DNA from: Escherichia coli
GTDB lineage: Bacteria > Pseudomonadota > Gammaproteobacteria > Enterobacterales > Enterobacteriaceae
Strand: one strand, 5' to 3'
Assembly (NCBI RefSeq): GCF_003334335.1
Contig: NZ_QOWQ01000182.1
Length of the DNA stretch: 500 nucleotides
This document shows, one piece after another, positions 1 through 500 of the stretch. A program made the translations under genes and the position numbers. The notes below the pieces were generated by a model. That model had not been told where the DNA came from. It saw only the letters and a list, made by a program, of their open reading frames with translations, and did no database searches. Positions within the stretch are counted from its first letter, which is position 1, and every line of letters starts with the position of its first letter.

Positions 1-470
1 TCCGTATCCCAGACCGGCTGCACAAAGATTTCGCCGTTAAACGCATGAACGCCCACACCTTCACGGATAAATTCCGTGAACGTGCGTTTTCCTTCCACGT
101 CGATCTCGCCAAACATCCCTTCTGCGTATTCCGACCAGGCCGCCTCCACCTCATCGACAAAGCTTTTTGCTGCGGTCTCCCGCATCCCCAGCCAGCGCCA
201 GTTCGGACGGTAGCTGATCAGAAACATATGCCCGACAATGTGATCCTTATGCAGAGCCACCGCATTAGCCGCTATTCCGTTATTGCGCACCAGATCATCT
301 GCCCGGGCATTCCCCAGACGCAACGCGGGTAGCAGGGCCGCATCGGCACTCTGCGCCGGTGGCAACCACTCAGCCATTTGCCCGCCAAATCCTGCACCGC
401 CCCCGTTGTAGCTGAGACTCTCACGAAGCGGAACGCCGTTCACATCAATCAGGACAGGCGTTCGTTTCAT
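1..470 (-). CDS. Phage portal protein, lambda gpB family; N-terminal 156 codons, 3'-partial (continues past window position 1)
   Basis: Reverse-complement translation from the ATG complementary to + 468-470 is open to the window edge: MKRTPVLIDVNGVPLRESLSYNGGGAGFGGQMAEWLPPAQSADAALLPALRLGNARADDLVRNNGIAANAVALHKDHIVGHMFLISYRPNWRWLGMRETAAKSFVDEVEAAWSEYAEGMFGEIDVEGKRTFTEFIREGVGVHAFNGEIFVQPVWDT. By-eye alignment with the lambda gpB N-terminus (recalled from memory) shows long conserved blocks: GxGFGGQ, DAALLP, GNARADDLVRNNG, AANA, LHxDHIVG, EVEAAW, KRTFT, IREGV, HAFNGExFVQ, WDT. A GGAG Shine-Dalgarno sits 7 nt upstream of the ATG. Confidence 0.9.
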   Translation of the reverse strand, partial: MKRTPVLIDVNGVPLRESLSYNGGGAGFGGQMAEWLPPAQSADAALLPALRLGNARADDLVRNNGIAANAVALHKDHIVGHMFLISYRPNWRWLGMRETAAKSFVDEVEAAWSEYAEGMFGEIDVEGKRTFTEFIREGVGVHAFNGEIFVQPVWDT

Positions 471-500
471 AACCTCACTCCCAGCGGACGACGGCGACGC
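467..500 (-). CDS. C-terminal end (10 codons plus stop) of the upstream gene, probably a gpW-like head-tail joining/head completion protein; 5'-partial
   Basis: Minus-strand frame ending at the TGA complementary to + 467-469 reads ...RRRRPLGVRL*. The arginine run followed by a short hydrophobic tail resembles the lambda gpW C-terminus (...QRRRGPAGFYV, from memory). The position immediately upstream of the portal gene and the 4-nt ATGA stop/start overlap match lambda W/B organisation. Only 10 residues are visible, so the family assignment is tentative. Confidence 0.55.
   Translation of the reverse strand, partial: RRRRPLGVRL
478..481 (-). promoter_or_regulatory. Shine-Dalgarno (GGAG, within a GGGAGTGAGG purine-rich stretch) for the portal gene
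   Basis: Minus-strand sequence 5'-GGGAGTGAGGTTATG-3' (+ 468-482); the GGAG is separated from the ATG by 7 nt. It lies inside the 3' end of the upstream coding sequence, as expected for translationally coupled genes. Confidence 0.5.

Follow-up and report, generated by a model that had tools for sequence, protein, structure and literature searches.

The adaptor–portal junction of a phage 21-type late operon in a 500-nucleotide window of Escherichia coli DNA

Introduction

Does a short piece of Escherichia coli DNA that reads as phage head genes from end to end hold anything besides those genes? The question is raised here by a stretch of 500 nucleotides, called the window below, from contig NZ_QOWQ01000182.1 of assembly GCF_003334335.1. 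A preliminary description made from the letters alone had assigned every base to two tightly packed phage morphogenesis genes on the minus strand, a portal gene and a gpW-like gene, and had found no basis for claiming an undescribed system. The present analysis follows up that description by similarity searches, family models, comparison with relatives, and scans for RNA genes, repeats, and signals. As set out below, we consider it close to certain that the window, a segment already known and very common, belongs to the late (morphogenesis) operon of an E. coli phage or prophage of the lambdoid, phage 21 type. Two smaller features on or within the portal gene, an antisense open reading frame (ORF) and a hairpin, are the places at which something additional might have been encoded, and these are weighed together with the possibility that the window stems from a defective element.

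The features considered in the window are as follows.

1..470, minus strand: 5' part of the portal gene, homologous to phage 21 gene 4 and lambda B, recognized by its open frame and by homology
467..500, minus strand: 3' end of a gpW-type head-tail adaptor gene (phage 21 gene 3), recognized by frame translation and by the full gene in an identical record
467..470, minus strand: ATGA overlap of the adaptor stop and the portal start, read from the sequence
473..481, minus strand: Shine-Dalgarno region of the portal gene, GGAGTGAGG, read from the sequence and lying within the adaptor coding sequence
45..332, plus strand: mirror-frame shadow ORF of 95 aa, antisense to the portal gene and judged to be no gene
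60..80, no strand assigned: perfect 8-bp hairpin TTCACGGA-TAAAT-TCCGTGAA, in the portal codons F-T-E-F-I-R-E and judged incidental

Identity, prevalence and genomic context

A megablast search of deposited phage genomes matched all 500 bases of the window at 100% DNA identity to the inducible Escherichia phage PhiR5_1 (PV340545.1), and among 5426 genomes one record, the E. coli NCTC9112 prophage at 3.35 Mb (NZ_LR134079.1), is likewise 100% identical over 500 bases. Because both match perfectly and yet differ from each other, with 77 differences in the 7193-nt terminase-to-capsid block and dissimilar regions upstream of the lysis genes, the window is not assignable to either one in particular. 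Phage 21 (M81255, OL657228) and a dozen relatives follow at 99.6% DNA identity in the same type of search. The features annotated beneath the phage matches are portal protein B and head-tail joining protein W, which are genes 4 and 3 in phage 21. By sequence, the window is the phage 21 allele of the adaptor and portal genes and not the lambda allele, because lambda DNA matches at only about 67% identity and only in a sensitive-mode search.

This allele is widespread in the host species. Matches at no less than 80% identity, covering at least 80% of the window, occur in 1861 of the 5426 complete E. coli genomes, and carriers have it at a median of 2 places and a maximum of 5, nearly all of them chromosomal.

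The flanks of PhiR5_1, the NCTC9112 prophage, and phage 21 carry the uninterrupted order Nu1-A-W-B-C/Nu3-D-E-FI-FII-Z-U-V-G-T-H, which continues after H with M-L-K-I(-J) in the two longer stretches of the three. The order that the preliminary description had predicted for the flanks (small and large terminase subunits, gpW-like gene, portal, protease/scaffold, decoration, and major capsid genes) is therefore the one found in all three records. No moron gene or other insertion lies near the window in these flanks. In addition, every record examined has the portal gene uninterrupted and in a phage context, and not in the broken or non-phage setting that the preliminary description had named as grounds for abandoning its reading.

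A plasmid or other non-phage context was also considered and set aside, as the search of PLSDB returned only 10 matching records, all with the matches beneath the same two genes, and was uninformative. Six of these 10 records are at least 286 kb long, ranging up to 1.4 Mb, and one is labelled EDL933; these large "plasmid" records with the portal allele may be chromosome fragments.

Several further observations concern the records that were compared. The tape-measure gene H is split into two coding sequences in PhiR5_1 (L001 19924-22496), as against a single 2574-nt gene in NCTC9112 (L002 22922-25495); the PhiR5_1 version is one base shorter, with the gap near gene position 2234 in a locally divergent stretch, and the missing base reflects either a true frameshift or an error in sequencing. 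The region that precedes the lysis genes in the NCTC9112 prophage (L002 3860-8452) has genes for a DNA methyltransferase, three tRNAs (one Ile, two Arg), TerB, DUF3927, and a SASA-family esterase of 1989 nt. The layout is similar to that of the late regulatory region in Stx phages, but L002 3860-8452 has no annotated toxin genes. Among the more distant matches, MW057783.1, deposited as "Campylobacter phage CJLB-4" (48,361 bp), gives at 2830-3230 an identity, E-value, and score exactly equal to those of the lambda records, and may be lambda DNA under a Campylobacter label. The portal-homologous region of phage vB_EcoM-783R5 (ON470627.1, 17956-18222) is annotated as "plasmid partitioning protein", which is probably a naming error.

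The portal gene

The portal gene starts with the ATG at 470-468, so that codons 1-156 and two further bases lie in the window and the gene continues beyond position 1. As translated from this ATG, the N-terminus reads MKRTPVLIDVNGVPL, and a longer stretch of the protein reads MKRTPVLIDVNGVPLRESLSYNGGGAGFGGQ. In a six-frame translation, minus-strand frame 0 has no stop in all of its 166 codons, and the remaining frames have 1-11 stops each. A stop-free frame also appeared in 425 of 20,000 mononucleotide shuffles of the window, which makes the open frame alone modest evidence. The identification of the window rests on identity and homology and not on the open frame.

The homology is extensive. 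The 156-aa fragment alone scores 175.8 bits with the NCBIfam model TIGR01539 (portal_lambda) and thus passes the cutoff of 172.7, and the full portal gene taken from a 100%-identical record scores 705.6 bits against that cutoff. The same full gene covers model positions 2-354 of 354 in Pfam PF05136 (Phage_portal_2) at 6e-100. Residues 5-156 of the fragment align with residues 7-159 of chain 8k38_A, the solved structure of the lambda "Portal protein B", at E = 2e-58, and the portal family phrog_21 was matched at 5e-49. By these comparisons, which include a score above the family threshold, homology to a solved structure, and a position in the head gene cluster as read in the matching records, the protein is a member of the lambda-family portals.

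A stronger match than phrog_21 was returned by phrog_3993, a 195-position profile annotated as "unknown function", which covers portal residues 1-156 (window 3-470, minus strand) at 9.8e-96. This profile probably represents N-terminal fragments of portal proteins for which no name was ever assigned.

Relatives with slightly different DNA provide a view of how the gene is maintained. When the portal part of the window was compared with phage 21, PhiR12_1, and ECO111, 17 distinct variable sites were found, and the minus-strand portal frame is under purifying selection, because 15 of these 17 are synonymous third-position sites.

The adaptor gene and its junction with the portal gene

Of the adaptor gene, the window contains one base of a preceding codon, the final 10 codons, RRRRPLGVRL (residues 59-68), and the TGA at 469-467. 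With 10 codons in the window, the assignment rests on the full genes of the matching records, in which residues 59-68 are identical. The full 68-aa adaptor of the 100%-identical record scores 50.3 bits with NF047331 (phage_HTJ, NCBIfam) against a cutoff of 33, matches phrog_75 (head-tail adaptor Ad1) at 3e-29, and aligns without gaps to lambda gpW over residues 16-66, with 28 of 51 residues (55%) identical (E = 1e-19). The score above the family threshold and the pairwise homology to lambda gpW, its basic C-terminal arm included, place the predicted protein among the gpW-type head-tail adaptors. Overall, both gene names given in the preliminary description are borne out, the portal by PF05136, TIGR01539, the gpB structure, and phage 21 gene 4, and the gpW-like gene by NF047331, phrog_75, and the similarity to gpW.

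The adaptor and portal genes share four nucleotides (ATGA), so that there is no intergenic base and the whole window is coding. Together with the 100% identity to annotated records, this confirms the view of two minus-strand morphogenesis genes packed without a gap. By annotated coordinates, the same 4-nt overlap occurs in PhiR5_1, NCTC9112, PhiR12_1, phage 21, lambda, N15, HK225, and 705R4. The GGAG at 478-481 corresponds to the ribosome_binding_site annotated at 2813-2816 of the phage 21 record OL657228. An ATGA overlap with a ribosome-binding site (GGAG/GAGG) inside the adaptor gene is a layout typical of translational coupling, and translation of the portal is thus probably coupled to that of the adaptor.

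The junction on the other side of the adaptor gene is different in this respect. The overlap of the large terminase gene with the adaptor gene measures 17 nt in phages of the 21 type (L001 11828-11844; L003 2621-2637) and 4 nt in lambda (L006 23-26); the terminase/adaptor junction has thus diverged between the two types, whereas the ATGA junction of adaptor and portal is unchanged. In phage vB_EcoM-705R4 (ON470624.1, L009 8-241), the gene in the gpW position, with a 4-nt overlap with the portal start, is annotated as "ATP synthase F0 sector subunit b" and is probably a misannotated adaptor.

Comparison with phage 21 and lambda

Genes 3 and 4 of phage 21, for head completion/adaptor and portal, are among the closest known counterparts of the window, with 99.6% identity over window positions 1-498. 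Phage 21 differs at three nucleotides (window 123, 330, and 499), of which the two in the portal part are both synonymous; portal residues 1-156 are therefore identical, and the ATGA overlap and the ribosome-binding site are the same as well. A difference lies in the form of the records: that of phage 21 is a free phage genome beginning at cos, whereas the orientation of the window suggests an integrated prophage. PhiR5_1 and the NCTC9112 prophage have the same two genes in the same late-operon order.

Lambda gpB and gpW (J02459; PDB 8k38, 1HYW) belong to the same protein families and are encoded in the same order with the same 4-nt W/B overlap, but there are also differences. The lambda DNA match begins about 100 nt into the query, and the extreme N-terminus of the portal, the leader, differs. 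The last residues of the adaptor differ also, being RRRRPLGVRL here, whereas the 68-aa lambda gpW aligns as ...RRRGPAGF through residue 66.

Function by analogy with lambda

In the lambda virion, twelve copies of gpB form the portal and twelve copies of gpW form the adaptor ring beneath it (PMC10721106). Residues 24-249 of gpB constitute the wing domain, the first 23 residues are not seen in the structure, and gpW attaches to gpB through an extended C-arm, residues 55-68, which docks by beta-sheet augmentation (PMC10721106). The lambda record J02459 annotates a 22-codon leader and a "processed B".

If the proteins of the window behave as their lambda homologues do, the portal would form a dodecameric ring at one vertex of the capsid, through which terminase would pump DNA into the head and through which the DNA would later leave. 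Residues 1-156, the part encoded in the window, would comprise the N-terminal leader, which is cleaved in lambda, and the beginning of the wing domain. The 68-aa adaptor would bind under the portal of the DNA-filled head and help to retain the DNA, as the twelve copies of lambda gpW do, and its residues 59-68, those present in the window, would fall within the C-arm that docks on the portal. What the comparisons made here show directly is the sequence identity, the membership of the two families, the order of the genes, and the purifying selection on the portal frame; the oligomeric state, the leader cleavage, the C-arm contact, and the translational coupling are all carried over from lambda.

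Scans for other elements

A search of the 500-nt window against 4227 Rfam families gave no match at E<=1, ARAGORN found no tRNA or tmRNA gene in it, and no sigma-70-like promoter site was detected in the window. Repeats in the window amount to one imperfect 23-nt direct repeat in two copies (74% identity) and two short inverted repeats, with no repeat array. The preliminary description, which had reported neither an RNA gene signature nor a repeat array, agrees with these scans. Its statement that there is no unexplained ORF requires qualification: a 95-aa ORF with matches to PHROG families does exist on the plus strand at 45..332, and the statement holds in the sense that this ORF is explained as a shadow of the portal gene, for the reasons given below.

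Alternative readings

One might think that the ORF at 45..332 encodes a genuine protein from the strand opposite the portal gene. It begins with ATG, runs for 95 codons, and has matches in three PHROG families that lack an assigned function (phrog_19427 at 3e-13, phrog_22532 at 2e-12, and phrog_31544 at 2e-4), and tblastn finds translations about 30-37% identical in lambda, N15, phi80, and Aeromonas phages. However, every one of these tblastn matches lies opposite an annotated portal gene, and therefore the similarity mirrors the conservation of the portal. The ORF shares its codon boundaries with the portal gene, and in this mirror register a stop can arise only from the sense codons TTA, CTA, and TCA, of which the fragment has just one. 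Stop-free mirror-frame runs of 88-291 codons are present in all of the longer late genes checked (Nu1, A, B, C, D, E, V, and H), and because such runs are so common in the neighboring late genes, an ORF of this kind is expected by chance. Relatives do not preserve it either. In PhiR12_1 and ECO111, a substitution at window 132 that leaves the portal protein unaltered puts an in-frame stop inside the ORF; the stop at 330, with which the ORF ends, is missing from these two and from phage 21; and the ORF frame contains 5 stops in N15 and HK225. Of 28 substitutions relative to the three close relatives, 27 are non-synonymous in the ORF frame as compared with 2 in the portal frame, and the ORF has no NCBIfam match and no promoter-like site. 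An overlapping antisense gene was accordingly rejected, with the frame neither kept open nor under purifying selection in relatives, and we give the idea practically no chance of being correct. The simplest explanation for the three PHROG families is that they collect over-called antisense ORFs rather than real proteins.

The hairpin at 60..80 might be a functional RNA element, either an intrinsic terminator for antisense transcription (on the plus strand, where CGTGCGTTTT follows) or a structure in the portal mRNA acting on stability or translation. A terminator-like site was found on the plus strand only, 1 as compared with 0.3 expected, and the predicted fold is stable on both strands (plus strand, -15.7 kcal/mol, z = -4.5; minus strand, that of the mRNA, -21.5 kcal/mol, z = -5.9), although these z-scores are inflated because the segment was picked after a scan. 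The T-run is, however, short and interrupted, neither a plus-strand promoter nor an Rfam match accompanies the hairpin, and the palindrome falls on the codons of FTEFIRE. The hairpin is present in the phage 21/PhiR5_1 allele, but PhiR12_1 and ECO111 have at position 78 a substitution, synonymous in the portal, that disrupts one pair of the stem with no compensating change and leaves -9.3 kcal/mol (z = -2.6), and the homologous stretch of lambda does not fold (z = -0.29). An intrinsic (Rho-independent) terminator at this site was rejected on the grounds that the stem is not maintained in close relatives and is absent in lambda, and a functional role of either kind has in our estimate a very small chance. 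Smaller still is the chance that the hairpin or the ORF has a function specific to a lineage. If this were true, the hairpin might keep antisense transcription out of the late operon or have a modulating effect on the portal mRNA, and the ORF could yield a small antisense-encoded protein in the sub-lineage in which it is open.

A reading of another kind concerns the whole window, which might come from a defective prophage remnant or a hijacker element in which these genes have ceased to serve virion assembly. Defective members are numerous among the lambdoid prophages of E. coli, and the presence of a median of 2 and up to 5 copies in carrier genomes would fit such an origin. On the other hand, the window has an unbroken reading frame and matches at 100% identity PhiR5_1, the record of which gives E. 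coli C as host; the NCTC9112 copy has a full late operon, with no pseudogene flags on its head and tail genes; and the variation among relatives shows purifying selection. We regard a defective origin as unlikely, though distinctly more credible than a function for the ORF or the hairpin, and the preferred reading, with which none of the results conflicts, remains a late-operon piece of a phage 21-type phage or prophage.

Implications

Both genes in the window are textbook virus-assembly genes, and the conclusion of the preliminary description that no undescribed system is present stands. This is a clean negative, and the window can leave the search for undescribed systems. Finally, the ORF at 45..332 serves as a worked caution for phage genomics, in that a shadow ORF in a GC-rich phage gene gathers matches to families of "unknown function" without being a gene.
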